This document shows positions 4,462 to 20,584 of a DNA stretch of 47,161 nucleotides, piece after piece; the first letter of the stretch is position 1, and every line of letters starts with the position of its first letter. Position numbers and translations under genes: made by a program. Location of the stretch: sequence record SRR22947727_961. One strand, given 5' to 3'. The notes beneath the pieces are model-generated. The model saw only the letters and a list, made by a program, of their open reading frames with translations. It ran no database searches and was not told where the DNA came from.

Positions 4462-4603
4462 GTCCTAGATGCGGAGGTAAATAGACCTTGTTAAAAGCGT
4501 ACGTGCAGTTTTTCGATCTTGCATTTCCAAGACCAGACTCATTGCACGAGAATCCTGAATTTCCAGACGCGAGACATTAGCCACAGTGCGACATACTTTG
4601 TGC

Positions 4604-5605: not shown

Positions 5606-6570
5606 ATGTGTCTTCAGGGGGTCGCTTCGCGCTCATCATGATGATCGGCGTCGTGGCAGTGGGCGTTGTTTTCGCCGCGTCTTTGGTGACAGGGTTTGCT
5701 GACATCAGCCCGCAGATCGTGTGGAGTATCCGGGCACCGCGGGTCGTACTCACCCTTGTCGTCGGGGCGGGTTTAGCTGTTGCCGGTGGACTGCTGCAGG
5801 GAGTTTTTGGGAACCCTCTGGCGGCCCCTTCAATCATTGGGGTTTCGGCTTCGGGTGCGGCTGGTGCGAGTATCGGAGCAGCGCTGGGCATTCCCTTCAA
5901 TTCGATACCGCTTGCGTTCATGGGGGTGATTATTGCCGGAGTTGGACTGATCGTTGTGCGTTCAATCGCTAGTCGTGATGGGAAGGTGAATTCAACAGCC
6001 CTGCTACTCGGCGGAGTGGCCATCAGCTTCTTCTCTCTGGCGCTGGTGTTGCTGGCTACTCCTTTCGTCAACAGGGAAGCTGGGCGGTCTTTCTCTTTTT
6101 GGGCTAACGGATCCTTCGCATTGGCGACTTGGTCCGGAGTCATTGCAGTTGCACCTTTGGTTGTCGTGGGTCTCGTCATCGCTTTTGGGATCGCCAGCCG
6201 AGTAGACCCGCTGTCTCTCGGCTCTATCGCTGCACGAGCCCTGGGGGTCGATGCCGACCGAGTGACGCAGTACGCGCTAGTCGCTGTGGTGCTGTTGGTT
6301 GCACCCGGTGTCACGGTCGTTGGCATTATCGCCTTCGTGGGACTCGTGGTTCCCCATGCCCTTCGGTTGTTTCTTGGACCGCGCAACACATTCCTGCTAC
6401 CAGCTTCAGCCGTCTTCGGTGCGCTGTTGGTGGCGAGTGCGGATTTCATTTCCCGCAACATGCTTGCCCCTGCAGAAATACCCGTGGGTGCAGTCACAGC
6501 ACTAGTTGGAGCACCTGTGTTCCTGGTGCTTTTGCGCCAGATGGTGCGTCGCGGGGTTATGAGCACCTGA
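5602..6570 (+). CDS. hmuU: FecCD-family ABC permease (heme)
   Basis: IRAPR, LQGVFGNPLA, GIIAFVGLVVPH, EIPVGAVTALVGAP; GTGA overlap with hmuT. Confidence 0.88.
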   Translation: MNVSSGGRFALIMMIGVVAVGVVFAASLVTGFADISPQIVWSIRAPRVVLTLVVGAGLAVAGGLLQGVFGNPLAAPSIIGVSASGAAGASIGAALGIPFNSIPLAFMGVIIAGVGLIVVRSIASRDGKVNSTALLLGGVAISFFSLALVLLATPFVNREAGRSFSFWANGSFALATWSGVIAVAPLVVVGLVIAFGIASRVDPLSLGSIAARALGVDADRVTQYALVAVVLLVAPGVTVVGIIAFVGLVVPHALRLFLGPRNTFLLPASAVFGALLVASADFISRNMLAPAEIPVGAVTALVGAPVFLVLLRQMVRRGVMST

Positions 6571-7220
6571 TGGCGTTGTTGGAACTGAAAGGGGTATCGC
6601 TACTCACAAGTGGTGTTGAGCGAGTCGCGTCAGTGACTGCATCGGTCGACGCGGGTCAGCTTGTAGCGATCGTCGGTCCCAATGGCTCAGGTAAGTCATC
6701 TCTGCTGGGTTTGATGGCTGGCCTGTTGACGCCCACGCGCGGATCCGTTCTGCTGGATGGTCGACTGGTGTCGAGTATGGGGCTGCGAGAACTTGCTACC
6801 CAGCGTGCGTGGCTGGGTCAATCAACGCCGGGCGCCGACAATTTCACTGTGGCAGAGGTTCTCAACTGGGGGAGGAGCTTCGCAGCCGGAGAAACCAGTG
6901 ATGCACAGAGCGCACTTGACGAGGTGGTGGAGGTGTTCGAGGTGCAGGATCTCATGACTGCACGGTTGCACCGGCTGTCCGGTGGCCAAAGGCAGCGAGT
7001 CCACCTTGCTCGCATCTGGCTACAGGGAGCACCGATCACGTTGTTGGATGAACCCGATTCGAGTCTTGATGAAACCGGTCGGTCTATGTTGCGCGGTGCC
7101 GTGCAGGAATGTGTGCGAGCGGGTCGGACAGTAGTTTTGGTGACGCACGATCGTGGCTGGGCAATGAGCGAAGCGGACCTCGTGTGGGAGGTTTTCGCGG
7201 GCCGAATCGTTGTCGGCTAG
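6570..7220 (+). CDS. hmuV: ABC ATP-binding protein (heme)
   Basis: Walker A GPNGSGKS, LSGGQRQR signature, LLDEP; TGATG coupling to permease. Confidence 0.85.
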   Translation: MALLELKGVSLLTSGVERVASVTASVDAGQLVAIVGPNGSGKSSLLGLMAGLLTPTRGSVLLDGRLVSSMGLRELATQRAWLGQSTPGADNFTVAEVLNWGRSFAAGETSDAQSALDEVVEVFEVQDLMTARLHRLSGGQRQRVHLARIWLQGAPITLLDEPDSSLDETGRSMLRGAVQECVRAGRTVVLVTHDRGWAMSEADLVWEVFAGRIVVG

Positions 7221-7229
7221 CGTTCAGGC

Positions 7230-7658
7230 ATGCTCAAAGGAATCGACCCGTTGCTCAGCGGCGACCTGTTGAAGATCTTGGACGATATGGGTCACGGCGA
7301 CCAACTTCTGCTCGTGGACCGCAATTACCCAGCCGCAGCGAGCGGGAAGTCGGTCATCCGCTTGGGAGAGGTCGGGGTCCTGCGTGCGGCTCGAGCGATC
7401 TTGAGTGTGTTGCCACTCGACTCGTTCATCGACCACTCGTTGGAGCGCATGGAGGTCGAGGACGATCCTGTGAAGACGACGTCCTTGCAGAACGACCTTC
7501 TGGCTCTTGCCAGTGAGAGCGAGGGGCGCAGCTTGGAGTACGGCGTCATTCCGCGCTTGGACTTCTATCAGCGGGCAGCTGCCGCCTGCGCGGTGGTGCA
7601 TACGTTGGAGGACCAGCCGTACGGCTGTTTCATTCTGCACAAGGGCGTTATCTTCTAG
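7230..7658 (+). CDS. RbsD/FucU family sugar mutarotase/pyranase
   Basis: MLKGIDPLL, MGHGDQLLLVDRNYP, RLDFY, YGCFILHKGV. Confidence 0.9.
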   Translation: MLKGIDPLLSGDLLKILDDMGHGDQLLLVDRNYPAAASGKSVIRLGEVGVLRAARAILSVLPLDSFIDHSLERMEVEDDPVKTTSLQNDLLALASESEGRSLEYGVIPRLDFYQRAAAACAVVHTLEDQPYGCFILHKGVIF

Positions 7659-7702
7659 CCAGTAGCGTGACCAAAGCCGACGATGAGGGAGATGGAGAAG
7701 AC

Positions 7703-7963
7703 ATGCCGGACGACGACATTGAGATCGGTGAAGACATCGAGGTAGAGGTTGTCCTCGACGAGAACGACAACGTGATCGGCACCGTTACCGACGATCTCGT
7801 CGTCGCCTCCGCCCCCGAAGGCTCACTCGTCGACGAGACGATCGACGTGCGAGATGCCGAGGGCAATCTCATCGTGGAAGATGAGACAGTCACGGTGTAC
7901 GACGCGGACTCACATGTGGTCGCGAAGAGCGAAACGATCACGCTGCCGCTCGACTCGGAGTAG
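7703..7963 (+). CDS. Small highly acidic hypothetical protein
   Basis: GGAG SD before ATG 7703 (alternative GTG 7667); GC-rich third positions; fills the gap between two real genes. Confidence 0.7.
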   Translation: MPDDDIEIGEDIEVEVVLDENDNVIGTVTDDLVVASAPEGSLVDETIDVRDAEGNLIVEDETVTVYDADSHVVAKSETITLPLDSE

Positions 7964-7967
7964 TCCC

Positions 7968-9170
7968 TTACCGGAAGCGAATATGTTCGGGTGAGAGATC
8001 CGCGAGCGTTCGAACGCCCAGGAGCGCCATCTGAGTCGTGACCTGTTCACGGAACAGCTCCACGACCTTTCGCACGCCCGATTGTCCTCCGGCCATCAGG
8101 CCGTAGAGGTGCGCGCGACCGACGAAGACACCGCGCGCTCCCAGTGCGACAGCCGCCAGCGCATCCGCGCCGTCGGTAATGCCACCGTCGAGGTACACCT
8201 CGCAGTCCTCGGGAACCGCTGCAACCACATCGGGGAGCACCTCCATCGGAACCGGCGCACGATCCAGTTGGCGTCCGCCGTGGTTGGACAAGACGATCGC
8301 GTCGACGCCGGCGGCCGACAATTCCTTGGATGTGGTGACGGACTGGACCCCCTTGACGACGAGTTTCCCGGGCCACCGGTCTCGAAGCCATGAGACGTCA
8401 TCGATCGTCAATGATGCATCGAAAACGCGGCTGAGCAGTTCCCCGACGGTGCCCTCCGAGTTCTTCAAGGACGCGAATTCCAACGGCTCATGCGTCAAGG
8501 CGTTCCACACCCACGAGGGATGCAGCGCCATGTCGAGGGCTGTGGACACGGTGAGTTTCGGAGGAACGGTCAGACCGTTGCGAATATCTCGACGACGAAT
8601 ACCACCGACGGGGGTGTCGATCGTGAGTTCGATCGTGCCGTAGCCGGCCGACTCGACCCTGTCGAGCAAGTCGTGGGTGATGGAACGGTCTTTGGATATG
8701 TACAACTGAAACCAATTGTTCCCCCCGGCAGCAACCCTTTGCAGGTCTTCCGGGCTGGTGGTGCCGAGTGTGGAGAGAACAAACGCGAGGTTGTTATCGC
8801 GTGCGACGGACGCGGTGGCTTCTTCCCCAGCGTGGTGCATCATGCGCGTGAATCCGGTGGGACCGAAACCGATCGGGAGATCCACCGGTGTACCCAGGAA
8901 CGTCGTCGAAGGGTCGACGTTCGAAACGTCGACCAGAGCATTGGGGCGGAATTCGACGGAACGGAAAAGTTGGCGCTGACGCAACAGAGCGAGTTCTTCG
9001 CCGGCGGAGCCGTCGGTGTAGTCGAACACCGCCCGTGGAGTGAACCTTTTCGCGATAGCGCGGATGTCGCTCAGGCTCGCCGCTCTCGCGAGTGCCCGTT
9101 CTCGCGAGTGCAGCTTAGGGGTTTCGAACTGCGCGAGTTCTCGGATTTCCGACCATCGGGGAATGCGCAC
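7968..9170 (-). CDS. FMN-dependent alpha-hydroxy-acid oxidase/dehydrogenase (LldD/glycolate oxidase family)
   Basis: FDYTDG, WFQLY, KLVVKG, SNHGGRQLD, LDGGI. Confidence 0.92.
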   Translation of the reverse strand: MRIPRWSEIRELAQFETPKLHSRERALARAASLSDIRAIAKRFTPRAVFDYTDGSAGEELALLRQRQLFRSVEFRPNALVDVSNVDPSTTFLGTPVDLPIGFGPTGFTRMMHHAGEEATASVARDNNLAFVLSTLGTTSPEDLQRVAAGGNNWFQLYISKDRSITHDLLDRVESAGYGTIELTIDTPVGGIRRRDIRNGLTVPPKLTVSTALDMALHPSWVWNALTHEPLEFASLKNSEGTVGELLSRVFDASLTIDDVSWLRDRWPGKLVVKGVQSVTTSKELSAAGVDAIVLSNHGGRQLDRAPVPMEVLPDVVAAVPEDCEVYLDGGITDGADALAAVALGARGVFVGRAHLYGLMAGGQSGVRKVVELFREQVTTQMALLGVRTLADLSPEHIRFR

Positions 9171-9209: not shown

Positions 9210-9965
9210 TCACCGCGTGCGCAGTAGCACGAACTGAAAGCGTCCTTCAACGAAGTATGTCTGGCTGTAGGCGACGGGGGTTCCGTCGCGGTCGAAGTGC
9301 ACTTGGTCAAGGAGGAGGTAGAGACCGTTGTCGGGTCGGTCGTCGCCCCAGCCGATGTCGGCCGAGTGGACGGCGTGCAACTCCGCGAGAGCCCTGACCG
9401 AGACCAAGCCGATCCGATCCATGGACGCGAACATGGAGCCGTCACCGAAACTGTTCTCGACTTCGGCCGTCATGTCACCCGCGGGCAGAACGTCGTACGA
9501 GTACGCCACGACTTCACCGTCGGCGGTGATGGCGCGCTGGAGTTCGAGAACGTCTGCACCACTGTCGAGGTGAAGTCGGGTTGATTCGTGGCGTGATCCG
9601 GGGCGGCGTGAGATCGAGTGATACTCCACACCTGGCTCGAGGCCCATTTCGGCAATCGTTTCGGTGATCGATCGAAGTTCCTGAACCCCGGACCGGATCT
9701 GGCCGCCAAAGTCGACGACAAACATGCCTGATCCGTGACGAATGTCGACCATGCCTTGGGATTCGAGGGCCTTGGCGGCAGTACGAATGGTCACGCGGGA
9801 AACACGGTAGGAGGCGGCTAGATCGGTCTCGCTGGGAAGCCGCGCTCCGGGAGGGAACTCGCCCCCGACGATTCTCCGGCGTAGGTCTTCGGCGATTCCT
9901 CGACCGAGAGGTATCCGCGAGGTTCCTCGCGTTGTATCCGTTCCTGTCACGTCGGTTCCACTCAC
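9210..9965 (-). CDS. GntR family regulator, HutC/UTRA subfamily
   Basis: RLPSETDLAASYRVSRVTIR wHTH, GSGMFV, C-terminal UTRA-like domain; divergent from mtnA. Confidence 0.9.
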   Translation of the reverse strand: MSGTDVTGTDTTRGTSRIPLGRGIAEDLRRRIVGGEFPPGARLPSETDLAASYRVSRVTIRTAAKALESQGMVDIRHGSGMFVVDFGGQIRSGVQELRSITETIAEMGLEPGVEYHSISRRPGSRHESTRLHLDSGADVLELQRAITADGEVVAYSYDVLPAGDMTAEVENSFGDGSMFASMDRIGLVSVRALAELHAVHSADIGWGDDRPDNGLYLLLDQVHFDRDGTPVAYSQTYFVEGRFQFVLLRTR

Positions 9966-9997
9966 AATTACCCCCTCGGTGCGCTACCCTAACCGCC

Positions 9998-10012
9998 ACT
10001 TGTAGGACAACT
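9998..10012 (+). promoter_or_regulatory. Putative GntR operator ACTTGTAGGACAACT
   Basis: Imperfect palindrome TTGT-N3-ACAA in the 64-bp gntR/mtnA spacer, just downstream of a TACCCT -10 candidate; near-identical copy at 16183-16197. Confidence 0.75.
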
Positions 10013-10029
10013 GCTCAGTTGGAGATCTT

Positions 10030-11067
10030 GTGGGTGACATTCGTGCGGTCCAGTGGTCGAACCGAGCCTTGGTCCTGATCGATCAGACCGAGCTGCCGAC
10101 GACGGAAACGTACGTCACGTGCAGCCGAGTGGACGATGTGGTCGACGCCATCATCCGGCTCGTCGTGCGTGGCGCCCCGGCGTTGGGTGCCGTGGGTGGG
10201 TACGGAGTGGCCGTCGCGATGTTGCAGGGTGAACGCGAGAACTGGGATGCCGCCCGTCTCGAATCGGAGATCATTCGGATCCGCGATGCACGACCGACAG
10301 CGGTCAACCTCGCCTGGGGTGTGGACCGTGTGCGCCCGATGGTCGCTGGTGGCGTCGAGGAAGTCCTGGCCGAAGCGGATCGGATCGCCGAAGAAGACGA
10401 AGCGGCCAATCGAGAACTGTCGCGACGTGGAGCGGATTGGATTCTGGCCAACACCACGACTCGACCGCTGCGCATCCTCACGCACTGCAATACGGGTTCT
10501 TTGGCGACGACCGCATGGGGGACAGCCTTGGGGATTATTCGAGAGTTGCACCTCCGAGGCGACGTCGAGCAGGTCTACGCCGATGAAACTCGTCCCCTGC
10601 TGCAGGGTTCGCGGCTGACGTCGTGGGAGTTGACTCAGGATCAGATCCCGCACGTCATCCAATCTGACGGCGCCGCCGCCTCGACGATTCTGCGGTCACT
10701 GGTGGACGTGGCGATCATCGGAGCGGATCGCATCGCACGGAACGGAGACACGGCGAACAAGATCGGATCGGTCTCCGTCGCCCTTGCCTGCCACGCGGCC
10801 GGCATCCCCTTCGTTGTTGCTGCTCCGTCGTCGACCGTCGACCTATCAACTGCTTCCGGTGACGAGATCGAAATCGAACTTCGTGATGGATCGGAAGTCA
10901 CGTCCATCGGGGGTGTCCAGGTCGCACCTGCCGGTGCTCAAGGATTCAACCCCGCCTTCGACGTCACCCCCGCTCGATTCATCTCCGCCATCGTTACCGA
11001 ACATGCTGTAGTGCAGCCGAGTGCTGAATCGGCGGTCGACGCTCTGGTGCATCGGGAGGCACAGTGA
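10030..11067 (+). CDS. mtnA: S-methyl-5-thioribose-1-phosphate isomerase
   Basis: IDQTELP, VRGAPA, RPTAVNL, LTHCNTGSLAT, ETRPLLQGSRLT, GADRIARNGDTANKIG, NPAFDVTP. Confidence 0.95.
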   Translation: MGDIRAVQWSNRALVLIDQTELPTTETYVTCSRVDDVVDAIIRLVVRGAPALGAVGGYGVAVAMLQGERENWDAARLESEIIRIRDARPTAVNLAWGVDRVRPMVAGGVEEVLAEADRIAEEDEAANRELSRRGADWILANTTTRPLRILTHCNTGSLATTAWGTALGIIRELHLRGDVEQVYADETRPLLQGSRLTSWELTQDQIPHVIQSDGAAASTILRSLVDVAIIGADRIARNGDTANKIGSVSVALACHAAGIPFVVAAPSSTVDLSTASGDEIEIELRDGSEVTSIGGVQVAPAGAQGFNPAFDVTPARFISAIVTEHAVVQPSAESAVDALVHREAQ

Positions 11068-13052
11068 ACGACCAACTGACCCCGCTTCGACAGCTCGTCG
11101 ACCGCTCGAATCGCATCGGTGATGACCCGTCACTCGTCGTGTACGGAGGGGGCAACACGTCGGCCAAGGGAAGGGTCGTGGATCATCTAGGGCGAGACCA
11201 GCAGGTGATGTGGGTCAAGGGCTCCGGTGCCGACATGCGCGGGTCGATCGAAACGGACTACCCGGCCCTACGTCTTGCGGAACTGACAGCACTGCGTGAT
11301 CGCGGCGAGATGACCGACGAAGAGATGACCGATCTTGTGACCCGGGCTCTGATGGATCCCGGCGCGCGGCGCCCCTCTATTGAGACCCTCCTGCACGCCT
11401 TCCTGCCGTTCACCCACATCGATCACGTGCACGCGGATGCCATCTGCGCGCTGACTAACCATGCTGAAGGGGCGCGCGTCACACGCGAGGCCCTGGGAGA
11501 CGGGTTCGCCTACGTGGACTGGATTCGTCCGGGCTTCGAGCTGAGCAAGATCGTCGGCGACTTGGCTCATTACGAGGGGGTCGTGCTCGCCCACCATGGC
11601 CTGGTGACGTGGGCCGAGGACTCGAACGAGTGCTTTCAGCGGACGATCGATGTGGTCGAGGCCGCACGTGCTTTCGTTGCGGAGCACTCCATCAACCCTG
11701 GGCCGCCACCTCGGCACGACGATATGCCGGTTGAGGAATTGGAAACTCTCCTGCTGCACTTGCGCGGAGTGCTCTCTCACACCGGTCACCGAGTGCTGCG
11801 TGTCGATGATCGACTGCGAGAAGTTGCCGACCATCCGCAACTCGACTCCATCGTCGCCGGCGGCGTCTCAAGCGCAGACCACATGTTGCGCATCAAGCCG
11901 CTGTCTGTTGCCCTGTCCGATACGGGCCCTGAGGAAGTAGCGCGGGCCGTCGAGGAATACACGAGCGCGTACGAGTCGTACGTGCAGCGCAACGCCGATT
12001 CGATGCCCGAGGGGTATTCGGGACATGACCCGATGCCTCGGGTTGCTCTCGTCCCCGGAGTCGGCGCGATCACTACCGGTCAGAACGCCTCCGATGCGAA
12101 AGTTGCGGCCGACATCGCGGTCCACACCCACGGTGTCGCGCGAACGGTTCTCGACTCCTTCGGTGAGCCGGAGCCGTTGAGTGACGTCGAGACGTTCCGC
12201 TTCGACTACTGGCCGATGGAGCTGTACAAACTGAGCCTGAAACCTGCACCGGCCGAGTTCGCGGGACGCGTCGCGATCGTTACCGGAGCAGCCGCGGGAA
12301 TAGGTCGGGGTATTGCGCTGTCTCTCGCGCGGTCGGGCTGCTCGCTGGTCCTGGCTGACCTCGATGCCTCGGGGCTCGACGAGGTCGCCTCGACGATCAT
12401 CGACGCCGGAGGACCCGAACCTGTCACCCTCACCGGAGATCAGTCAGATTCCAGCGTGGTGCGCTCTACTGTCGCAACGGCTATCCGACACTTCGGTGGA
12501 CTCGACGGCGTGGTCATGAACGCCGGGATCGGTGTGACCGGCTCGCTGGCTGAACTCACGGACGAGAAGTGGCGTGCGGCCCTCGACATCAACCTGACCA
12601 GCGCCTTCGCGTTGACCCGCGAGTCCATGCGCGCGCTCCAGGTGCAAGGAATCGGTGGTTCCTTGGTGTTCGTGGCAAGCAAGAACTCCTTCAGTCCGGG
12701 AGCAAACTTCGGTGCCTACTCGGTGAGCAAAGCGGGAATGGTCCAGTTGATGCGTATCGCTGCGCTGGAAGGCGGGAAGTCGGGCATCCGGTCGAACGCG
12801 GTAAATCCTGATGCAGTCTTCGACAATTCACGCTTGTGGGATAGCGGTCTGCGAGAAGAGCGTGCGGCTGCCCATGGGATCGCCCCGGACCAACTGGAAG
12901 ATTTCTACGCGTCGAGGAACATTCTGAAACGTCGGGTGACGACCGCCGATGTCGCGGCATCGGTGGAGTTTCTTCTCTCGGACCGTTCATCTCGAACAAC
13001 AGGATCGGTGATGACCGTCGACGGTGGAGTGGCCGGAGCGTTCCCGCGCTAG
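11064..13052 (+). CDS. Bifunctional class II aldolase / short-chain dehydrogenase (RhaEW/YuxG-like)
   Basis: GGGNTSAK, VKGSG, PSIETLLH...HVH metal site; C-terminal SDR TGAAAGIG, NAG, YSVSK; GTGA overlap with mtnA. Confidence 0.9.
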   Translation: MNDQLTPLRQLVDRSNRIGDDPSLVVYGGGNTSAKGRVVDHLGRDQQVMWVKGSGADMRGSIETDYPALRLAELTALRDRGEMTDEEMTDLVTRALMDPGARRPSIETLLHAFLPFTHIDHVHADAICALTNHAEGARVTREALGDGFAYVDWIRPGFELSKIVGDLAHYEGVVLAHHGLVTWAEDSNECFQRTIDVVEAARAFVAEHSINPGPPPRHDDMPVEELETLLLHLRGVLSHTGHRVLRVDDRLREVADHPQLDSIVAGGVSSADHMLRIKPLSVALSDTGPEEVARAVEEYTSAYESYVQRNADSMPEGYSGHDPMPRVALVPGVGAITTGQNASDAKVAADIAVHTHGVARTVLDSFGEPEPLSDVETFRFDYWPMELYKLSLKPAPAEFAGRVAIVTGAAAGIGRGIALSLARSGCSLVLADLDASGLDEVASTIIDAGGPEPVTLTGDQSDSSVVRSTVATAIRHFGGLDGVVMNAGIGVTGSLAELTDEKWRAALDINLTSAFALTRESMRALQVQGIGGSLVFVASKNSFSPGANFGAYSVSKAGMVQLMRIAALEGGKSGIRSNAVNPDAVFDNSRLWDSGLREERAAAHGIAPDQLEDFYASRNILKRRVTTADVAASVEFLLSDRSSRTTGSVMTVDGGVAGAFPR

Positions 13053-13084
13053 ATCAACGAGGCCGACAAGTTTGGCTAAACCGG

Positions 13085-14185
13085 CTAAACCTTCTGAACC
13101 GACTGTACGAGTCGGCGAGCGTTCTCGGCCAGGTCGCCTCGATGAAGCGCTCCACCGACCAGGAGTGCGACGTCGATGCCGTAGAAGTCGGTGAGTTCGT
13201 CGATTCGATCCAGCGTCATGCCGCCACCGGGACTCAGCCAGGCAGACGCAAGCGAGCCAAGTGGAGCCAGGCACGCCGCCTGAATCGCCGACAATTCCTC
13301 CGGCGAGAAACTGAAACGCCCCCCATGGTTGGGGAAGATCGAGATATCGGCCCCCGCCAATCGCATCAGTGTCCCGAACATGATCCCGGGGTCGATTCCC
13401 TGGTCTGGATTCACCACATTGGATCCCAGGAACGAAGGGTGAGCCATGATGGGAAGAGCGAGGTCGTCGTCATCGGCAAGAGAGCGCATCGCGTCGAAAC
13501 CGCAGATACCGGGCAGTACCAGCAAGGCTCCGGCCCCTGCTTCCTTCGCAAAAAGGGCCGCGTCCCGCAGAGAGTCTGCTGGGACATTCAGGCTCGGCAT
13601 GTATGCAGACGGGTGGCCGGTCTCAGACGCTGCCTCGTTCACCGCCTGGGCGATGGCCGTGACGCGATCGCGCCACGTGGCCCAGGGTTGATCGGCAAGT
13701 CCGTGATCGTCCTTGATGATGTCGAATCCGGCGGTTGCGATGGTCCGAGCCATGGTCGCCAGCATCTGCGGGCTGGACCCCATCGGCTTCACCGCGGTAC
13801 ACACCAGGGGGCGATCGGAAGCGCCGAAGAGAGATCGAAGTCCCGGAATCCCGAAACGGGGTCCACGGAAATCATTGAGGATCGAGTCGGGTAAGCGCAG
13901 GTCGCGGACCCGGACCCCGGGGAACAGCGAGACGTTGCCCCACAACAAGTTGAGCACTTGCACTAGGCCACCGCCGGCCACGCCGGGGTCGTATCCGATG
14001 GTTATGTCGCCACCGTCATCGTTGAGTACGTGACCGACCACGCCCTGTTGAATCCACTCCGGTGCGAGCTCGAAGGGGAACTCGATGGTCTGCTCGACGC
14101 GGATAGCCTCGGCGATTGCGCGGGGGTCCTCGGCGGTGATCCGGTAGTCGATTTCGATGAGGTCGCCGGATGCGGCTGCGGTCAC
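13085..14185 (-). CDS. RuBisCO-like protein (form IV), R. rubrum methylthioribulose-1-phosphate 1,3-isomerase type
   Basis: VEQTIEFP, GNVSL, GPRFGIPGLR, CTAVKPMG, IKDDHGLADQ, AHPS, GADISIFPNHGGRF, PGGGM. KDDH (not KDDE) and loss of the second Lys of KPK argue against a carboxylase. Confidence 0.88.
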   Translation of the reverse strand: MTAAASGDLIEIDYRITAEDPRAIAEAIRVEQTIEFPFELAPEWIQQGVVGHVLNDDGGDITIGYDPGVAGGGLVQVLNLLWGNVSLFPGVRVRDLRLPDSILNDFRGPRFGIPGLRSLFGASDRPLVCTAVKPMGSSPQMLATMARTIATAGFDIIKDDHGLADQPWATWRDRVTAIAQAVNEAASETGHPSAYMPSLNVPADSLRDAALFAKEAGAGALLVLPGICGFDAMRSLADDDDLALPIMAHPSFLGSNVVNPDQGIDPGIMFGTLMRLAGADISIFPNHGGRFSFSPEELSAIQAACLAPLGSLASAWLSPGGGMTLDRIDELTDFYGIDVALLVGGALHRGDLAENARRLVQSVQKV

Positions 14186-15228
14186 AGCGCTTCGACCTTC
14201 GCGTTGCTGTGCGTGGCGGCGACGCGCACCTTGGTGAGATCCGAAGCAGAGACCCCGAGAGGTCGATCGAGCACGTTCTCGGCCAGTCGCACCAGCGACA
14301 GGGCATCGAGGTGGTACTCGGCGAGCAGATAAGGCTGAGACGCTCCATGCGCGTACGTATCTCTCAGGCCCATTCGGTGCAAAGGCGTGGCGATCGAGTT
14401 CTCCGCCATGACCTCCGCCACGGCCGACCCGAGGCCGCCGGTGGTCAAGTGGTTCTCCATGGTGATGACCCCTGCAGTCGCCGATCGCAGCGCAGTGACG
14501 ATGGTCGGATCGGTGAAGGGCTTCAGGGTGGACACATGAAGATGGGACACCGACACGCCTGCTGAGCGGAGCGCGGGAATGGCGCGCAGGGCTTCCTCGG
14601 TCAGGATTCCGGAGGTGAGTACGACGAGTTCGGCCGGCGCGGCGAGAGCGTCTCCGCCGAGACTGAGGACCCGCGCCCGGTTGAACTGCATCGGTTCGTC
14701 TGCCGGGAACAATCGCGGAACCTCACCGCGGAGCATGCGAACGTATACGGGCCCGTCCACGGCGTGGGCGACGTCCACGACGGATTCGACTTCGGTCGCA
14801 TCGCCGGTTTCCACGATCGTCATGTTGGGAATCGTGCGCATGACCGCCACATCGTCGATGGCTTGGTGGGTGACGCCCCCGGGAGTGGTGATGCCGGGAA
14901 GGAAGCCCACAAGTCGAACCTTGAGGTTGGGGTAGGCCACGGACATCTGCAGTTGATCCAGCGGGCGGCGGTAGAGGAAGACCGCGAACGTGTGAAGCCA
15001 GGGCTCGAAGCCTTCCCGCGCCAGACCCGCGGCGAAACTGAGCATGTTCTGCTCCGCCATTCCCATGGAGAAGAATCGGTCGGGGTAGGTGTCTCGCCAC
15101 TTGCCCACCTCGCAGGAGTTGGTCAAGTCTGCGCTGAGAACGAGAACCTCGGGTTTATCGGCGGACCAGTTGATGAAGTTGTCCACGTGGGGACGGGTCA
15201 CGATCTCGATGTTCGAACGTGTGCTCAT
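14182..15228 (-). CDS. Split transketolase-like enzyme, C-terminal (pyrimidine-binding) subunit
   Basis: SADL, MGMAEQNM, THQAIDD, GPVYVRM, TMENH, GGLGSAVAE; GTGA overlap with RLP. Confidence 0.9.
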   Translation of the reverse strand: MSTRSNIEIVTRPHVDNFINWSADKPEVLVLSADLTNSCEVGKWRDTYPDRFFSMGMAEQNMLSFAAGLAREGFEPWLHTFAVFLYRRPLDQLQMSVAYPNLKVRLVGFLPGITTPGGVTHQAIDDVAVMRTIPNMTIVETGDATEVESVVDVAHAVDGPVYVRMLRGEVPRLFPADEPMQFNRARVLSLGGDALAAPAELVVLTSGILTEEALRAIPALRSAGVSVSHLHVSTLKPFTDPTIVTALRSATAGVITMENHLTTGGLGSAVAEVMAENSIATPLHRMGLRDTYAHGASQPYLLAEYHLDALSLVRLAENVLDRPLGVSASDLTKVRVAATHSNAKVEAL

Positions 15229-16160
15229 GCCTGACCCCCCGACGACGAGACCGATTCGGTGGAGACGAGAGCTTCGTAGAACTCCTCATACTTCGCACGC
15301 TCGTCGTGACCGGTGAAACGCAGGTAGTGCAGCACCGGTCGGCGCTCGTTCATCAGCGGCACGCCGCGAACGGGGTCGGTGTAGGCCAGAACAAAGTGCG
15401 GGCGCCCGGTGGGCCGTTCCAAGGCGTGGGTGAGGGCGGCGATGTTGTGTCCGTCGACCGAATCGGCGCTCGCGCCGAACGCCTTGATCTTCGTGGCCAA
15501 AGGTTCGATGTTCATGACCGAGTCCATGGGGCCGTCGCACTGGGCTCTGTTGACGTCGACGACGACGCGAACCGTATCCAATCCGTAGAACGCGAGTGCC
15601 TGGATCGCCTCCCACGTCTGGCCTTCTTGGAACTCACCGTCGCTCATGAAAACAAAGGTGCGCCCCGTCTCACCCTTCAACCTCCGGCCGAGGGCGATTC
15701 CCCCCGCGGTGGACAGTGCTTGCGCGAGGGAACCGGTCGTTGTTTCGAAACCGGGCGAGTGCTCGGCTCCGATCATTTCGACGGTCGATCCGTCCTTGTT
15801 GAATTGATCGAGAGCGGCCTCGTCCAGGCGACGGGCCTCGATGAGTGCTGCGTAGACCACCAGGGCGTAGTGCGCAGGGGAGATGATGAGTCGGTCGAGG
15901 TCGGGACCGGGCTCCCCGTGAAAGATGCCGCCGGAGATCCGCGGCGCCTCGGGTCCTGGTACGGCGTCGAAGTCCGCCGGGTGCAAGGGCCCGTCGGTGG
16001 AAGCCAAGTTCAGGACGTTCCCGTAGAGCGAGGCGAGTAGTTCTGCCGACGAGCACGCCTGGCTGAGATAGCCGCCGTTGTTGGCGAGTACGTGTGCGAG
16101 GACCCGCTGGCGGATCCCTTGGGCGATCTGTTCGGCTGTTGGGGACGCGGAGAAAGCCAT
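15225..16160 (-). CDS. Split transketolase-like enzyme, N-terminal (ThDP-binding) subunit
   Basis: DRLIISPAH, TTGSLAQ, SDGEFQEGQTWEA...N ThDP motif, VDGHN; ATGA overlap with C-terminal subunit; TAGCCT-N6-ATG leaderless start. Confidence 0.9.
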   Translation of the reverse strand: MAFSASPTAEQIAQGIRQRVLAHVLANNGGYLSQACSSAELLASLYGNVLNLASTDGPLHPADFDAVPGPEAPRISGGIFHGEPGPDLDRLIISPAHYALVVYAALIEARRLDEAALDQFNKDGSTVEMIGAEHSPGFETTTGSLAQALSTAGGIALGRRLKGETGRTFVFMSDGEFQEGQTWEAIQALAFYGLDTVRVVVDVNRAQCDGPMDSVMNIEPLATKIKAFGASADSVDGHNIAALTHALERPTGRPHFVLAYTDPVRGVPLMNERRPVLHYLRFTGHDERAKYEEFYEALVSTESVSSSGGQA

Positions 16161-16182
16161 AGCGCAAGGCTACAAAGTCATA

Positions 16183-16197
16183 AGTCGTCCTACAAGT
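16183..16197 (-). promoter_or_regulatory. Second putative GntR operator ACTTGTAGGACGACT
   Basis: Plus strand AGTCGTCCTACAAGT; 14/15 identical to 9998-10012; lies just upstream of the TAGCCT -10 of the transketolase-RLP operon. Confidence 0.75.
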
Positions 16198-16258
16198 TTT
16201 CCCCTAGAACTCCTCAGGACCGTGCCCAGTGACGAGCGATCTGTGGCACGGTTCCCAC

Positions 16259-17692
16259 GTGACTGATCAATCCCTCGTAGCCGGTGTAGACACCTCAACC
16301 CAATCGGTGAAGGTGGTGGTCCGGGAGGCCGACACCGGAGCGTGGGTTCGCGAGGGGCGTGCATCGCATCCGGACGGCACCGAAGTCGCCCCTGAGGAAT
16401 GGTGGACGGCTTTCGGTGCGGCCTGTTCGGGTGGACTGCTCGACGGTGTTTCGGCCATCTCGATCGCCGGGCAGCAGCACGGAATGGTCGCCTTGGACGA
16501 GAGTGGTGATGTTGTTCGGCCCGCCTTGTTGTGGAACGACACTCGGTCGGCTCCCGACGCGAGCGACCTGGTGACCGAACTGGGTGGCCCGGCCATGTGG
16601 GCCGAGGCGGTAGGCAGCGTCCCTGTTGCGGCCTTCACGGTGAGCAAAGTGCGATGGATGGCTCGAAACGAGCCGGACAACGCCGAACGAACGTCGACCA
16701 TCATGCTCCCGCACGACTACCTGACATGGATGCTCGCCGATCAGCCCCATGCGGCAACCACCGACCGGGGTGATGCCAGTGGCACGGGTTACTGGTCCCC
16801 AATCGAGGGCGAGTACCGGCGCGATCTGATGCAGCTGGCTCTCGGAAAAGACGTGCAACTCCCGCGCGTTGCCGGGCCGGATGAGACCGTTGGGGAGGTG
16901 GGTGGTCGCGCCCGGTCTTTCCTCGGAATCAACGGATCGTCACCGATCGCCATCGGTCCAGGAACGGGCGACAACATGGGCGCAGCGTTCGCTCTGGAAA
17001 TCGCTCCCGGCGACGTCGTGGTGTCCCTAGGAACATCAGGTACCGCGTTCGCGGGATCGAGTCAACCGACCAAAGACCCCACCGGGCTGGTCGCGGGCTT
17101 TGCTGATGCCTCCGGTGTCTTCCTACCTCTGGTGTGCACACTGAACGCCGCGCGCATCCTCACCAGCACCGCTGAACTCCTCGGCGTCGACATGGATTCC
17201 TTCGCTGCGTTGGCGCTCGCCGCTGAACCCGGAGCCAGCGGACTCGTCATGCTCCCGTACTTCGATGGGGAACGAACCCCCAATCTGCCCGGTGCTCGCG
17301 GATCTCTTCACGGCATCAGTCGGGAGAATCTGACACCGCAGAATCTCGCGCGGGCGGCTATCGAGGGAATGCTCGGCGGACTTGCCGACGCGGTCGACGC
17401 GCTCGTCGATGTGGGTGTTCAGCCGAGCCGGGTACTCGTAGTTGGAGGTGCTGCGTCGAATCCGGCGGTGGCAGATATCGCAGCCACGCTCGTGGGCGTC
17501 CCGGTGCAGATACCTCCTGCTGGTGAGTACGTTGCCGACGGCGCGGCCCGGCAGGCGGCATGGATTCTGCGCGGCGGGGAACAACCCGCATGGAGCGACG
17601 TACGGCCCGGCGAGACGGTCTCTCGTGATCCACAACCGGCCGCCCAGGTGCGCGAGCAGTATCGGCAGGCGCGGGAGGCCCTCTACGCGTGA
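16259..17692 (+). CDS. xylB: FGGY carbohydrate kinase, xylulokinase-like
   Basis: GVDTSTQSVK, GQQHG, LLWNDTR, DRGDASGT, GTGDN, SLGTSG, GERTP. Confidence 0.85.
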   Translation: MTDQSLVAGVDTSTQSVKVVVREADTGAWVREGRASHPDGTEVAPEEWWTAFGAACSGGLLDGVSAISIAGQQHGMVALDESGDVVRPALLWNDTRSAPDASDLVTELGGPAMWAEAVGSVPVAAFTVSKVRWMARNEPDNAERTSTIMLPHDYLTWMLADQPHAATTDRGDASGTGYWSPIEGEYRRDLMQLALGKDVQLPRVAGPDETVGEVGGRARSFLGINGSSPIAIGPGTGDNMGAAFALEIAPGDVVVSLGTSGTAFAGSSQPTKDPTGLVAGFADASGVFLPLVCTLNAARILTSTAELLGVDMDSFAALALAAEPGASGLVMLPYFDGERTPNLPGARGSLHGISRENLTPQNLARAAIEGMLGGLADAVDALVDVGVQPSRVLVVGGAASNPAVADIAATLVGVPVQIPPAGEYVADGAARQAAWILRGGEQPAWSDVRPGETVSRDPQPAAQVREQYRQAREALYA

Positions 17693-17810: not shown

Positions 17811-17910
17811 CAGAATGATCCCGCCGCCTCCCCCGGCGGCGATCGGTATGCACGGCATACCCCAGGAACCCGCGCGTCAACCCCCCCAGCCGCGCGGGTT
17901 CCGTCTGTTG
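17811..17910 (+). ncRNA. Probable 6C RNA
   Basis: Intergenic; two GC-rich hairpins with C-run loops (CCGCCG-CCTCCCC-CGGCGG at 17821-17839; GGAACCCGCGCG-..CCCCCCC..-CGCGCGGGTTCC at 17865-17902), the defining architecture of the actinobacterial 6C motif. Confidence 0.7.
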
Positions 17911-17916
17911 TGTGGG

Positions 17917-19464
17917 TCAGGCGCGGGACTCGAACATTCCCAGCAGAGCGGCGACGCCCAGCACCGATCGAGGTGCGTAGGCGGCCCGCCACAGTCCGCC
18001 GTGGTTCGCTCCCTCGGTGAAGAGATTCATCGGGTTGGACAACGGGGTTGCGGGATGGGCGCTCGACGTCGGGTTGCGAAGGTCATGCACCAACATTGCG
18101 GCCATCAGCGTCGTCGACGTGGACGGATCGAATACCTCGACCCCGAAGCGATCGGCCCCGGCGTACGCCGCCGCGAGCGCTCGGTTGCGAACAACGGAGC
18201 GGGTTCGGGTCGCGGGCGCGAGATTCAAGGAGACAGGGACGCCGTCGGCGCGAGCGGCGAGAGCTCGCCACCGTTGAATCCGCTTCGCGAGTATGTAGTT
18301 AGGGCCTTGCTGGGGGATGATCGAATCGTTCAGGCCGACCTGTTCACCGCTCGGTGTCGAATAGATCTTCGGGTAGTTCGGCTCGAACTGCCTCGCAATG
18401 CGAAGAGGCGCCTGGAGGAGACCGCCGAGCCCGCGGCCTTGCCAGCGTCGACGGCTCTCTTCAACGCACTCGGCAGGAACGACGAACACATCAGTGGGGG
18501 TCGCCAAATAGGCCAGCGTGATGTCGTCTCGGTGTTGCAGCAGGGTGGTGACGATCGCATCGCTCGCCCCGGAGATCTGTACGTGTTGGGCGCCGTCCGC
18601 GTAGGCGTAGGTGCCAAGCACGAACGGCTGATTAATCTCTGCCAGCCATGTCCGCACCTCTGGCACAGCGGTGACGAGATCGACGCCTGCTGCGCTGCAG
18701 ATCGTCGCATCGTCGTCTGGGTGCACGTCACCCTCGACGACGAAAGGTGGCTGGCCCTGGGCGTCGAGCGGGATGGGTACGCGGAGGCTGCCGGCTGTGC
18801 TCCGTGTAATGGCTGTCAGTCGTTCCCAGATCCCAGGGCGGGGAAGATCGATGGCGTGAACCCGGGCGCCCCAGCGCAACAAGGAGCGAGTCGGTGCCAT
18901 TTCTGCACCGGCGCCGAGCAGGGCGATGTCGACGTCTCGTAAGTCCATCCAGTCTGGGTTGTCCAGAACGAGGTGTATCGCATCGGCAAACGATGGTTCG
19001 GCTATTCCGTTGGCGACCCATGAGTCGACCTGTCGGCGGAGTTCACTTCCGAAAAGCCGGCCGCCCTTGTAGGGGACAGAAATCTCTTCCTCGGGGGTTG
19101 CTCGCCCGCGCACCGTGACCGAAGCCAAGCCTCGTTCGCTGAATCTCTCCATTGCCTCGGGTAGGGACATTTCTTCCTTGTCGCGCCGAAAGGTGAAGCG
19201 CTGCTGTGCCGATTCGAGGCCATGCCGGGAAATGGAGACCGCGTTATCCGGCGACTGCGCAGCGGCGAGAACTATGTCTCGCAAGGGAGCGATGTACCCC
19301 TTGCGCCAGTCGCGGGTGTGTTCGATGCGAGCCGCGATTGCCGGATCGACGGCGCGGATGGAGTCGGCGAAAACCGCTCGACCGGTGGCGGATGTGCTGC
19401 GTCGGCCGTCCCCCCCGAGGGGAAAACACACTCCCTCTGCATCAGGGGAACGTGGATTCGGCAC
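17917..19464 (-). CDS. Hypothetical protein with Rossmann-like motif
   Basis: 515-aa ORF with GC-rich third positions; LLGAGAEMAP, QGPNYILAKR, NHGGLWR; TATTCT-N6-GTG start. Confidence 0.75.
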   Translation of the reverse strand: MPNPRSPDAEGVCFPLGGDGRRSTSATGRAVFADSIRAVDPAIAARIEHTRDWRKGYIAPLRDIVLAAAQSPDNAVSISRHGLESAQQRFTFRRDKEEMSLPEAMERFSERGLASVTVRGRATPEEEISVPYKGGRLFGSELRRQVDSWVANGIAEPSFADAIHLVLDNPDWMDLRDVDIALLGAGAEMAPTRSLLRWGARVHAIDLPRPGIWERLTAITRSTAGSLRVPIPLDAQGQPPFVVEGDVHPDDDATICSAAGVDLVTAVPEVRTWLAEINQPFVLGTYAYADGAQHVQISGASDAIVTTLLQHRDDITLAYLATPTDVFVVPAECVEESRRRWQGRGLGGLLQAPLRIARQFEPNYPKIYSTPSGEQVGLNDSIIPQQGPNYILAKRIQRWRALAARADGVPVSLNLAPATRTRSVVRNRALAAAYAGADRFGVEVFDPSTSTTLMAAMLVHDLRNPTSSAHPATPLSNPMNLFTEGANHGGLWRAAYAPRSVLGVAALLGMFESRA

Positions 19465-19477
19465 GAGGTCAGAATAC

Positions 19478-20449
19478 TCAGCGCTGCTGCCGAGAACGTT
19501 CCGCTAAGACCACCCCGGTCAGGATGAGTGCACCACCGATGAGTTGAACGATGCCCAAGGACTCCGAGAGAACGAGCCACGCGATAAGAATCGCTAGCAG
19601 CGGTTCGGTCAATCCGATGACGGACGCTTGGGAAGCGCGGAGATGGCGCATCGATGCCACGACCAGCCAGAACGGAACCACCGTTCCCATCACGATCATC
19701 CATAAGGACAGGCCCCACAGCGGCTGATCGCCGAGAGGTGCTCCGAGATCTTCCAAACTGGTACCGGACAAGTCGGACCAGGGAAAGTTCCACCACGGTT
19801 GAACGACGACCCAGAACAACGATGCGAAGCCGAAACCCCACATGGTCAATGACACGGGGTCGCGCGGTTCCGGTAGTCGCATCTGTCGATCGGTAATCAA
19901 GTAGTGGGCGCTGAGCGCGAGTGCCGCTCCGAGAGCGGCCAACAGGCCGATCACCTCGAAAGAGAAGCCGCGCCACACCTCCGCCACGAGTGCGAGTCCT
20001 ACAAGCGCGACGGTCAAAGCCAGCCACACGGTCCGTCGCGTTGGCTCTCGAAGAGCGAAGCGGAACCACAGCGCCACGAAGACAGGTGCAGTGAATTCGA
20101 TCAACAGCGCGACGCCGACGGGCAAGTAACGCAGTGCAACGAAGAACAGGTACTGCGTCATTGCGACGCCGAGAATTCCGTAGGCGATCAGGAACGGCCA
20201 CTCTGAGCGATGGATCACCAGGCGCCGTGGGCGAGAGATGACGATGAAGGCGAGAAGAATCACGAAAGCCCCGGTCACGCGCAGTTGGGAAAGGCGAGCA
20301 GCGTCGATGCCGCTGAGTAGGATGGCTTTCGATACGGAGCCGTTGATGGCGAATGTCAACGCTCCGAGAAGGTAGAGGGTGTAGCCCACCCACAAAGAAC
20401 GGCGAGCTGCCAATGGAACTCCGGGGAGTGGCTCGACGAGATCGCTCAT
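19478..20449 (-). CDS. EamA/DMT family transporter
   Basis: About ten hydrophobic helices; LPVGVALLIEFTAPV, LTEPLLA, IGGALILTGV; start uncertain (ATG of MSDLVEP chosen). Confidence 0.88.
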   Translation of the reverse strand: MSDLVEPLPGVPLAARRSLWVGYTLYLLGALTFAINGSVSKAILLSGIDAARLSQLRVTGAFVILLAFIVISRPRRLVIHRSEWPFLIAYGILGVAMTQYLFFVALRYLPVGVALLIEFTAPVFVALWFRFALREPTRRTVWLALTVALVGLALVAEVWRGFSFEVIGLLAALGAALALSAHYLITDRQMRLPEPRDPVSLTMWGFGFASLFWVVVQPWWNFPWSDLSGTSLEDLGAPLGDQPLWGLSLWMIVMGTVVPFWLVVASMRHLRASQASVIGLTEPLLAILIAWLVLSESLGIVQLIGGALILTGVVLAERSRQQR

Positions 20450-20584
20450 GCTAGGCGGCAACCGCACGAGATGGCGGCGTCGACGCAGGTCGGATGGGCC
20501 CTTTGCATGGCACCGAAGCCTAGGGATCGGTCATCGACTGACACGACGGCCGTCACGTATGACGGGCTGCCTTAAAGCGTCGAA

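Follow-up and report, generated by a model that had tools for sequence, protein, structure and literature searches.

Cells that make polyamines or use radical S-adenosylmethionine (SAM) enzymes must dispose of methylthioadenosine (MTA) and 5'-deoxyadenosine, and the known endings of this salvage are the oxygen-dependent methionine salvage, the dihydroxyacetone phosphate (DHAP) shunts, and an isoprenoid shunt consisting of a RuBisCO-like protein (RLP) and a cupin. Here, we examined a gene cluster in the sequence record SRR22947727_961 (47,161 nt; this whole stretch is called the window), in which two genes at positions 14182–16160 on the minus strand, TK-N and TK-C, encode a split thiamine diphosphate (ThDP) enzyme resembling transketolase and are followed by an RLP gene. 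The closest database protein is 97% identical and is labelled as belonging to a metagenome-assembled genome (MAG) of Candidatus Nanopelagicales. We propose, from the conservation of its residues, that TK-N and TK-C form an α2β2 ThDP enzyme of the transketolase fold that is catalytically competent and is not the transketolase of the pentose phosphate pathway. On balance, we favor the reading that this enzyme cleaves a 1-methylthio- or 1-deoxy-ketopentose 5-phosphate derived from the RLP reaction.

The MTA-isoprenoid shunt of Rhodospirillum rubrum and Rhodopseudomonas palustris comprises MtnP, MtnA, an RLP of the DeepYkr clade, and a cupin methylsulfurylase. Of the two RLPs in R. palustris, RLP1 belongs to the DeepYkr clade and RLP2 to the Photo clade; RLP1 converts 5-methylthioribulose 1-phosphate into 1-methylthioxylulose 5-phosphate and 1-methylthioribulose 5-phosphate at a ratio of 3:1, and the cupin, which uses glutathione, gives 1-deoxyxylulose 5-phosphate (DXP) for isoprenoids (PMC5893883). 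For transketolases, another study lists H66, H100, G114, and H473 as donor-binding residues, describes His100 as consistently Phe in DXP synthases, and gives the pyruvate activity of H100F and H100L transketolases as up to one third of that of DXP synthase (PMC7661550). A preprint states that His100 hydrogen-bonds the hydroxymethyl group of the donor, that it is H100L, H100F, and H100Y that make pyruvate, a donor without the hydroxyl, acceptable, and that acceptor specificity is governed by Asp469 (bioRxiv 10.1101/719906). The roles that the initial annotation of this locus had given to His100 (donor contact, hydrophobic in DXP synthase) and Asp469 (acceptor reading) agree with these sources.

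The genes of the operon, as read from the open reading frames (ORFs) and their translations, are as follows.

15225–16160, minus strand: TK-N, the diphosphate-binding N-terminal subunit, 311 aa; Pfam Transketolase_N, 54.8 bits; residues of note, Tyr31, His97, Met129, Ser173-Asp174-Gly175, Asn204, Cys208, and His278.
14182–15228, minus strand: TK-C, the pyrimidine-binding and TKC subunit, 348 aa; Pfam Transket_pyr, 90.3 bits, and Transketolase_C, 57.6 bits; residues of note, Arg12, His14, Glu59, His79, Phe109-Leu110, Pro116-Gly117, His121, and Arg167.
13085–14185, minus strand: RLP, form IV; Pfam RuBisCO_large, 69.1 bits; residues of note, Lys133 and Lys158-Asp-Asp-His161.

TK-N and TK-C overlap in ATGA and are translationally coupled, TK-C and the RLP gene overlap in GTGA, and the three genes are a single operon in which the RLP gene is last. 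The Pfam matches of the two subunits together make up the three-domain set of transketolases (PP, Pyr, and TKC). By sequence (HMMER), the best solved relatives were 6YAK for TK-N (128.4 bits) and 6YAJ for TK-C (189.7 bits), i.e., the split transketolase of Carboxydothermus hydrogenoformans, in which PP likewise forms one chain while Pyr and TKC share the second.

The initial annotation had reported that five canonical transketolase motifs are altered in this enzyme. The substitutions were checked by HMMER alignment to the split transketolase 6YAK/6YAJ, human transketolase, and a DXP synthase, by MAFFT alignment of 151 representatives from the family and the canonical split transketolases, and by MAFFT alignment with E. 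coli TktA and Dxs from the K-12 record; the E. coli numbering was verified at residues 26, 66, 100, 155, 185, 261, 358, 385, 411, 461, 469, 473, and 520. All three alignments were concordant on the five motifs, each change was borne out, and proper alignment did not restore the lost His and Asp residues. GH(P)G is GGYLSQ here, with Tyr31 at TktA His26. LQGHP is VEM-IG, with Met129 at His100 followed by a one-residue deletion, and E. coli Dxs carries Phe107 in the same column. In other words, the donor-binding residues His26 and His100 are both replaced. GEDGPTHQ is T-PGGVTHQ, with Pro116-Gly117 at Glu468-Asp469 in a loop that is shorter by one residue and with His473 retained as His121, and GDG is SDG, with Ser173-Asp174-Gly175 at TktA Gly154-Asp155-Gly156. 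SKGH is SPAH, a changed motif in which the equivalent of His66 is nevertheless retained as His97.

Further changes came to light beyond these five. When 6YAJ and human transketolase are aligned by HMMER, the hydrophobic pair Phe109/Leu110 takes the place of the phosphate-binding His461 (in the MAFFT alignment, this part of E. coli TktA is misplaced). TktA Ile189, which lies beside the thiazolium ring, is Cys208 (codon 15537–15539); the corresponding Ile182 of the C. hydrogenoformans N subunit is a thiazolium contact (PMC7661550). New invariant residues are His14 and His79 in the C subunit and Glu128, Glu133, and His134 in the N subunit. Thus, compared with 6YAK/6YAJ and the short transketolases such as the human enzyme, which have the same cofactor and metal ligands, the equivalents of His26, His100, Asp469, and His461 are here Tyr, Met/Leu, Gly, and Phe/Leu. 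The retained metal and ThDP ligands are Glu59 (Glu411), Asp174 (Asp155), and Asn204 (Asn185), and the other cofactor-site positions Gly143/Leu145 and Phe81/Phe84 are also retained. Arg167 corresponds to Arg520, Ser38 is aligned with Ser385, Arg12 lies one column away from Arg358 in the MAFFT alignment, and a His261-like residue, His278, is retained.

To collect relatives, one-genome-per-species contigs were scanned with the peptide patterns EMIGAEHS and QEGQTWEA, which gave at least 597 confirmed matches, of which the best 80 loci were kept. The baits were taken from the family itself, so the conservation of both bait stretches, including Glu128–His134 in the first pattern, is partly by construction; Tyr31, Ser173, and the entire C subunit lie outside the patterns. 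N-subunit residues were counted in the window and 79 loci, and C-subunit residues in the window and 73 loci. Tyr31 and Ile130 occurred in 80/80, Ser173 in 79/80, and the His100 column held Met129 in 69/80 and Leu in the other 11, i.e., Met or Leu in 80/80; His97 was present in 69/80, with Gln in the other 11. Cys208 was found in 72/80 (seven Val and one Ala), where the sister subfamilies have Val or Ala and the canonical enzymes Ile. Pro116, Gly117, and His121 were each present in 73/74, the sole exception being a gapped row, and Phe109 and Leu110 each in 73/74. This pattern of substitutions is not due to chance. Among the cofactor ligands, Asp174 and Asn204 occurred in 80/80 and Glu59 in 73/74, and because this machinery is both kept and nearly invariant in the family, the protein is probably an enzyme rather than a relic. 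The phosphate site, to judge from Arg167 (73/74), Ser38 (71/74), and Arg/Lys12 (73/74), appears largely retained, which fits a phosphorylated substrate of pentose length.

An all-against-all comparison of the representative library showed that the family is graded down to about 40% identity, followed by Tyr-type sister groups and then by the canonical split transketolases, which carry SGHPGGS, SKGH, LQGHP, and GDGE. The sister subfamilies in eight loci (L130–L137) are split transketolase-like proteins (33–41% identical) with Tyr at the His26 position and without His100; some share Pro-Gly at 468/469, and none has an RLP within 1.5 kb. In NCBIfam, they matched only generic transketolase models, all below the cut-off. 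The occurrence of Tyr-type sisters without an RLP suggests that the remodeled pocket is older or wider than the link to the RLP.

The simplest alternative is that this is an ordinary pentose-phosphate transketolase that looks odd through splitting and divergence, and Pfam and NCBIfam indeed give no other name. We consider it very improbable. The N and C subunits scored 144.6 and 196.8 bits against NF004559 (cut-off 488) and 44.9 and 41 bits against TIGR00232 (cut-off 682.25); these are single-chain models whose cut-off one half cannot reach, and the sums of the halves also fall short. The five replaced substrate-contact positions are fixed across many phyla, the canonical split transketolases are never beside an RLP (0/17 loci in the sample described below), and the genome nearest to the window (G001; 47% shared words, 89% complete), on which all our genome-wide statements rest, carries, together with the operon, a full-length transketolase that passes the curated cut-off with 711.8 bits. 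It also has a second, canonical-looking split transketolase on contig C38 (L082/L083), with the canonical N-subunit histidines, Leu at Asp469, and His at Gln474, beside an FGGY kinase; this pair appears to be another specialized transketolase. An assignment as DXP synthase does not fit the proteins either: Tyr31 and Gly117 occupy the columns of His49 and Asp427, and the C subunit scored 145.1 bits against TIGR00204 (cut-off 465.95). No phosphoketolase (XFP) family was among the Pfam matches at E ≤ 0.001.

The fold was modeled by AlphaFold2 with a natural fused homologue, P0130, which is 54–59% identical to the window subunits and stands in for the window proteins themselves. The model gave a TMq of 0.75–0.76 to human transketolase and 0.41–0.43 to DXP synthases; on this model, the domain arrangement is of the transketolase type. 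A true transferase, which would pass the two-carbon unit of an ordinary or modified ketose to an aldehyde acceptor like the specialized split transketolases of sulfoquinovose and apiose breakdown, with the RLP acting before or after it on a different intermediate, would have this fold and arrangement (TMq 0.75 against 0.42 in the fused homologue), and His473, the His261-like His278, and mostly the equivalent of His66 are retained. A 6-deoxy-6-sulfofructose transketolase has been published (PMC11659671). On the other hand, neither the residues that bind the transferred glycolaldehyde unit, His26 and His100, nor the acceptor-reading Asp469 has been kept, such an enzyme would merely hand the methylthio group to another sugar, and the loci show no recurrent second enzyme of sugar phosphates. 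We therefore regard transfer as improbable.

The RLP encoded downstream was most similar among solved structures to 3QFW (212.1 bits; “Rubisco-like protein from Rhodopseudomonas palustris”), which ranked before the MtnW-type enolases and 2QYG (titled rlp2), and its AlphaFold2 model (pLDDT 88.4) matched 3QFW with a TMq of 0.88 and a root mean square deviation of 1.9 Å. Since 2QYG is titled rlp2, 3QFW is probably, by exclusion, RLP1 of the DeepYkr clade. The RLPs of the module all carry Lys133 and the motif Lys-Asp-Asp-His (KDDH), as in 3QFW (63/63). In the window, this motif lies at 13703–13714 (RLP residues 158–161), where RuBisCO and MtnW carry Lys-Asp-Asp-Glu (KDDE), a metal ligand. RLPs of another clade in Actinomycetota carry KDDE and lie beside FGGY kinases.

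Because H100L and H100F transketolases accept the non-hydroxylated pyruvate, the natural Met/Leu129 fits a donor that lacks the C1 hydroxyl. When this is considered together with an adjoining isomerase whose relatives make 1-methylthio-ketopentose 5-phosphates, the residues point to cleavage of the C2–C3 bond of the RLP product, and this is the basis of the reading that we favor. The initial annotation had named 1-methylthio- or 1-deoxy-xylulose 5-phosphate as the donor; the change at His100, the similarity of the RLP to 3QFW, and MtnA in the same regulon speak for this proposal, which leaves the losses of Asp469 and the His461 equivalent unexplained. An enzyme acting before the RLP, on 5-methylthioribulose 1-phosphate, was judged less likely by reasoning only, as the C1 phosphate would need basic, not hydrophobic, residues at the positions of His100 and His26.

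The RLP gene was directly 3' of TK-C on the same strand in 62 of the 80 loci and nearby in three more. It was present in 65 of the 71 loci with room for it, and nine of the 15 RLP-less loci end within 185 bp past TK-C. Three representative proteins from metagenome sequences (P0129, P0131, and P0134) are fusions in the order RLP-TKN-TKC. The taxa represented include Actinomycetota, Chloroflexota, Spirochaetota, Gammaproteobacteria, and a Promethearchaeota MAG, and among the cultured carriers are Georgenia sp. H159, Enemella sp. A6, Glaciecola punicea ACAM 611, and Alkalispirochaeta alkalica DSM 8900. As a sample independent of the motifs, 401 Actinomycetota genomes were searched with TK-N, and the best 30 loci consisted of five of the family, eight of the Tyr-type sisters, and 17 canonical ones. 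All five family loci carried all the variant residues, and an RLP was adjacent in two of them (G001 and G152), whereas no RLP occurred within 1.5 kb of the Tyr-type sister (0/8) or canonical (0/17) loci. With the RLP as the query, these genomes yielded 25 loci whose RLP is of a different type (KDDE, about 30% identity), with no transketolase within 1.5 kb. In this sample, only the remodeled family was ever linked to an RLP, and the link is obligatory in neither direction. Hence, the tracking of the substitutions with RLP adjacency, as expected in the initial annotation, held in one sense, because only the remodeled family stands beside an RLP (2/5 versus 0/25 loci); it did not in the other, because family members also occur without an RLP (6/71 loci and 2/5 genomes).

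The remaining features of the cluster in the window are as follows.

9210–9965, minus strand: GntR/UTRA-type regulator, divergent from mtnA; Pfam GntR, 68.3 bits, and UTRA, 58.0 bits.
9999–10012, plus strand: 14-nt motif, copy 1, CTTGTAGGACAACT, 5' of mtnA; candidate operator.
10030–11067, plus strand: MtnA, S-methyl-5-thioribose-1-phosphate isomerase; TIGR00512, 402.8 bits (cut-off 279).
11064–13052, plus strand: class II aldolase/short-chain dehydrogenase (SDR) fusion, convergent with the RLP gene; Pfam Aldolase_II and adh_short.
16183–16196, minus strand: 14-nt motif, copy 2, CTTGTAGGACGACT, 5' of TK-N, inside the 68-bp gap to xylB.
16229–17692, plus strand: FGGY kinase that scores as a xylulokinase (xylB), divergent from TK-N; TIGR01312, 400.4 bits (cut-off 380.25).

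The aldolase-SDR gene starts with a 4-nt overlap onto mtnA, and its product scored 564.2 bits against TIGR02632 (rhamnulose-1-phosphate aldolase/dehydrogenase type), just below the cut-off of 567.75; it may offer a second, aldolase-based route that runs in parallel from the MtnA product. The 14-nt motif was first spotted by eye, and its statistics were computed afterwards: CTTGTAGGACRACT had two exact matches in the window and one with two mismatches, against 0.29 expected at up to two mismatches, and none of 100 shuffles gave three matches. It includes the small palindrome TTGT-N3-ACAA; inverted repeats were not detected in either promoter gap at seed 6. The identical motif 5' of mtnA and 5' of TK-N suggests that one regulator controls both operons, and we consider the motif a candidate operator for the adjacent GntR/UTRA regulator. 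Outside the cluster, 4586–9170 encodes a siderophore-type ATP-binding cassette (ABC) importer (Peripla_BP_2, FecCD, and ATPase), an RbsD/FucU mutarotase-family gene (7230–7658; such genes are present in 4/80 related loci), and an FMN-dependent 2-hydroxyacid dehydrogenase (7968–9170). On the other side are a 515-aa ORF without a Pfam match (17917–19464, minus strand) and an EamA-type transporter (19478–20467), both 76–93% conserved across the five closest loci; a plus-strand ORF overlapping the former (17815–18942) resembles an antisense artifact.

Among the 80 loci, the commonest neighbor was MtnA (28–31), followed by the aldolase-SDR fusion (19), parts of a ribose-type ABC importer (18–19), a SorC-type regulator (16), an MtnK-like APH kinase (15), an FGGY kinase (8), a DeoC/LacD-family aldolase (7), a protein of the purine-nucleoside-phosphorylase family (3), and a nucleoside transporter (3). 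For example, the genes of the Glaciecola punicea locus (L046) are a phosphorylase, an amidohydrolase, MtnA, TKN, TKC, RLP, and a nucleoside transporter, in this order, and those of the Promethearchaeota MAG are MtnK-like, MtnA, TKN, TKC, and RLP. In the nearest genome, a gene resembling MTA phosphorylase scored 240 bits, short of its cut-off (274.85), and an O-acetylhomoserine sulfhydrylase exceeded its own (611 bits); profile searches of this genome gave no match for MtnK or ARD and a match of only 27.6 bits for MtnB. The searches of the nearest genome thus revealed an enzyme that uses methanethiol but not the customary later steps of methionine salvage.

These neighbors bear on the alternative that the substrate is not derived from MTA but is a 1-deoxy- or otherwise modified ketopentose phosphate, which either the RLP or a sugar kinase acting on an imported deoxy-sugar or polyol could supply, with SAM by-products as one use among others. 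RLP-less members with all the variant residues lie beside an ABC importer, an FGGY kinase, a Zn alcohol dehydrogenase, and a class II aldolase/epimerase (L042 and L061). In G317, G060, and G052, the RLP is not adjacent and PfkB or Zn alcohol dehydrogenase genes stand beside the family enzyme. One locus (L016) carries an FGGY kinase and an RLP together, and an FGGY kinase stands beside TK-N in the window. Against this, MtnA, MtnK-like kinases, and nucleoside genes are the commonest neighbors (28–31, 15, and 3+3 of 80), and the kinase of the window scores as a true xylulokinase whose 76–95% identical copies lie beside the transketolase genes only in the closest relatives (L001–L006) and the nearest genome. 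We consider this alternative unlikely. For the same reasons, namely its score as a true XylB and its restriction to the nearest relatives, the xylulokinase was not adopted as a member of the pathway; in L002, a ROK-type regulator stands beside the FGGY kinase.

We infer the substrate, the reaction direction, and all the chemical steps of the favored reading, which would proceed as follows. MTA (or 5'-deoxyadenosine) would be converted into 5-methylthioribose (or 5-deoxyribose) 1-phosphate, MtnA would give the corresponding ribulose 1-phosphate, and the RLP would shift the carbonyl group to yield 1-methylthio- (or 1-deoxy-) xylulose or ribulose 5-phosphate. ThDP would then attack C2 of this ketose, the C2–C3 bond would be broken, and glyceraldehyde 3-phosphate would be released, with Arg167, Ser38, and Arg/Lys12 holding its phosphate. 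In the methylthio case, the ThDP-bound methylthio-hydroxyethyl carbanion would expel methanethiolate to form acetyl-ThDP, which would end as acetate or an activated acetyl group; in the deoxy case, the two-carbon unit would be expected to leave as acetaldehyde. The conserved Cys208, which replaces the thiazolium-contact Ile, is suggestive in this respect and may accept the acetyl group or aid its release.

The presumed substrate belongs to the same class as the product of DXP synthase, a 1-deoxy-ketopentose 5-phosphate, and both enzymes carry a hydrophobic residue in place of His100 (Phe107 in E. coli Dxs). In contrast, Dxs retains His49 and Asp427, the equivalents of His26 and Asp469, where Tyr and Gly are found here, its domain arrangement is different (TMq 0.42), and the direction proposed here is cleavage, with no carboxyl group to lose.

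Phosphoketolase and sulfoacetaldehyde acetyltransferase are ThDP enzymes that expel a β substituent to form acetyl-ThDP, and a thioether in the β position relative to the ThDP carbanion can serve as a leaving group. By analogy, a phosphoketolase-like elimination of methanethiol, i.e., a ThDP-dependent carbon–sulfur lyase reaction, is put forward tentatively; the likeness to these enzymes lies only in the proposed β-elimination chemistry, and no sequence relationship was seen by Pfam. Within the favored reading, this elimination carries the largest share, though still a doubtful one, simple release of the aldehyde carries about half as much, and transfer to an acceptor somewhat less again.

In the case of simple release, a plain lyase would convert the RLP product into glyceraldehyde 3-phosphate and free 2-methylthioacetaldehyde or acetaldehyde, with the thiol kept and the aldehyde handled by the fusion SDR or another dehydrogenase. 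The aldolase-SDR fusion in the same regulon (19/80 loci) is in line with this, and if products of 5'-deoxyadenosine are handled as well, the enzyme must be able to release an aldehyde, since a deoxy substrate offers nothing that could leave. Moreover, no enzyme for acetyl phosphate or CoA, as would partner a phosphoketolase or an acetyltransferase, recurs beside the operon among the 45 largest neighbor clusters. An acetyl-CoA hydrolase/transferase gene adjoins an RLP-less fused family enzyme in a single case (L072:2660-4012, minus strand), which is relevant only to the proposed acetyl product. However, the products of a plain lyase would be those of the aldolase route, triose phosphate and methylthioacetaldehyde, so the two extra enzymes would be redundant. 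Furthermore, most loci outside Actinomycetota have no nearby dehydrogenase, and, on chemical grounds, the thioether would be expected to leave. A plain lyase is therefore rather unlikely.

Several observations weigh against the favored reading. The replacement of Asp469 by Gly and of the His461 equivalent by Phe/Leu is not predicted by it, and E. coli Dxs, although it acts on this very triose phosphate, keeps Asp427; these losses are unexplained because the glyceraldehyde 3-phosphate product retains the C2 hydroxyl and the phosphate that these residues read. They may mean that the aldehyde half differs from ordinary glyceraldehyde 3-phosphate, or that the minor ribulo isomer is targeted. In the P0130 model, pLDDT is below 50 precisely at the two variant loops (residues 132–151 and 434–444), so the model gives no geometric support for the pocket argument. 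The identity of 3QFW with RLP1 is itself reached only by exclusion. Six of the 71 loci (L042, L049, L061, L072, L077, and L079) have no RLP despite 1.5–7 kb of room; in G317, the RLP is 14 kb away on the same contig, and G060 and G052 have no RLP match at E ≤ 1e−20. Conversely, KDDH-type RLPs occur in G102 and G217 without a family transketolase within 9–12 kb. The RLP-less members adjoin FGGY or PfkB kinases, Zn alcohol dehydrogenases, and a small class II aldolase/epimerase-family protein. Given these importer and kinase operons, the substrate is evidently also reachable by phosphorylating a free sugar, and the family may concern deoxy-ketopentose phosphates generally. Finally, clearing the MtnA product may require no more than the aldolase-SDR fusion of this regulon.

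Compared with the MTA-isoprenoid shunt, the locus has in common MtnA and a 3QFW-like RLP, and the nearest genome adds the MTA-phosphorylase-like gene and the O-acetylhomoserine sulfhydrylase. The region 9210–17692 of the window is fully taken by seven genes, leaving no space for a cupin gene in the cluster, and no cupin family was among the neighbor clusters scanned, the rest of the genome not having been searched for cupins. The ThDP enzyme thus occupies the place of the next step, where its cleavage reaction would leave the carbon as glyceraldehyde 3-phosphate plus a two-carbon unit instead of directing it to isoprenoids. No description of an RLP-linked transketolase-like enzyme was found in full-text literature searches, and the enzyme probably performs a so far undescribed step that recovers carbon and sulfur from MTA.

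The gene trio is widespread, with at least 597 matches, reaches archaeal MAGs, and also occurs as a single fused protein. If the favored reading is true, a large RLP clade would have its missing partner identified, the transketolase family would gain a new type of reaction, and the enzyme would be the natural counterpart of the H100L and H100F mutations that engineers designed to switch the donor. If thiol elimination is also true, a single enzyme, with no need for oxygen or glutathione, would feed all five carbons back into central metabolism and liberate the sulfur as methanethiol, from which methionine could be made, and would constitute a third, widespread route completing the salvage of MTA.

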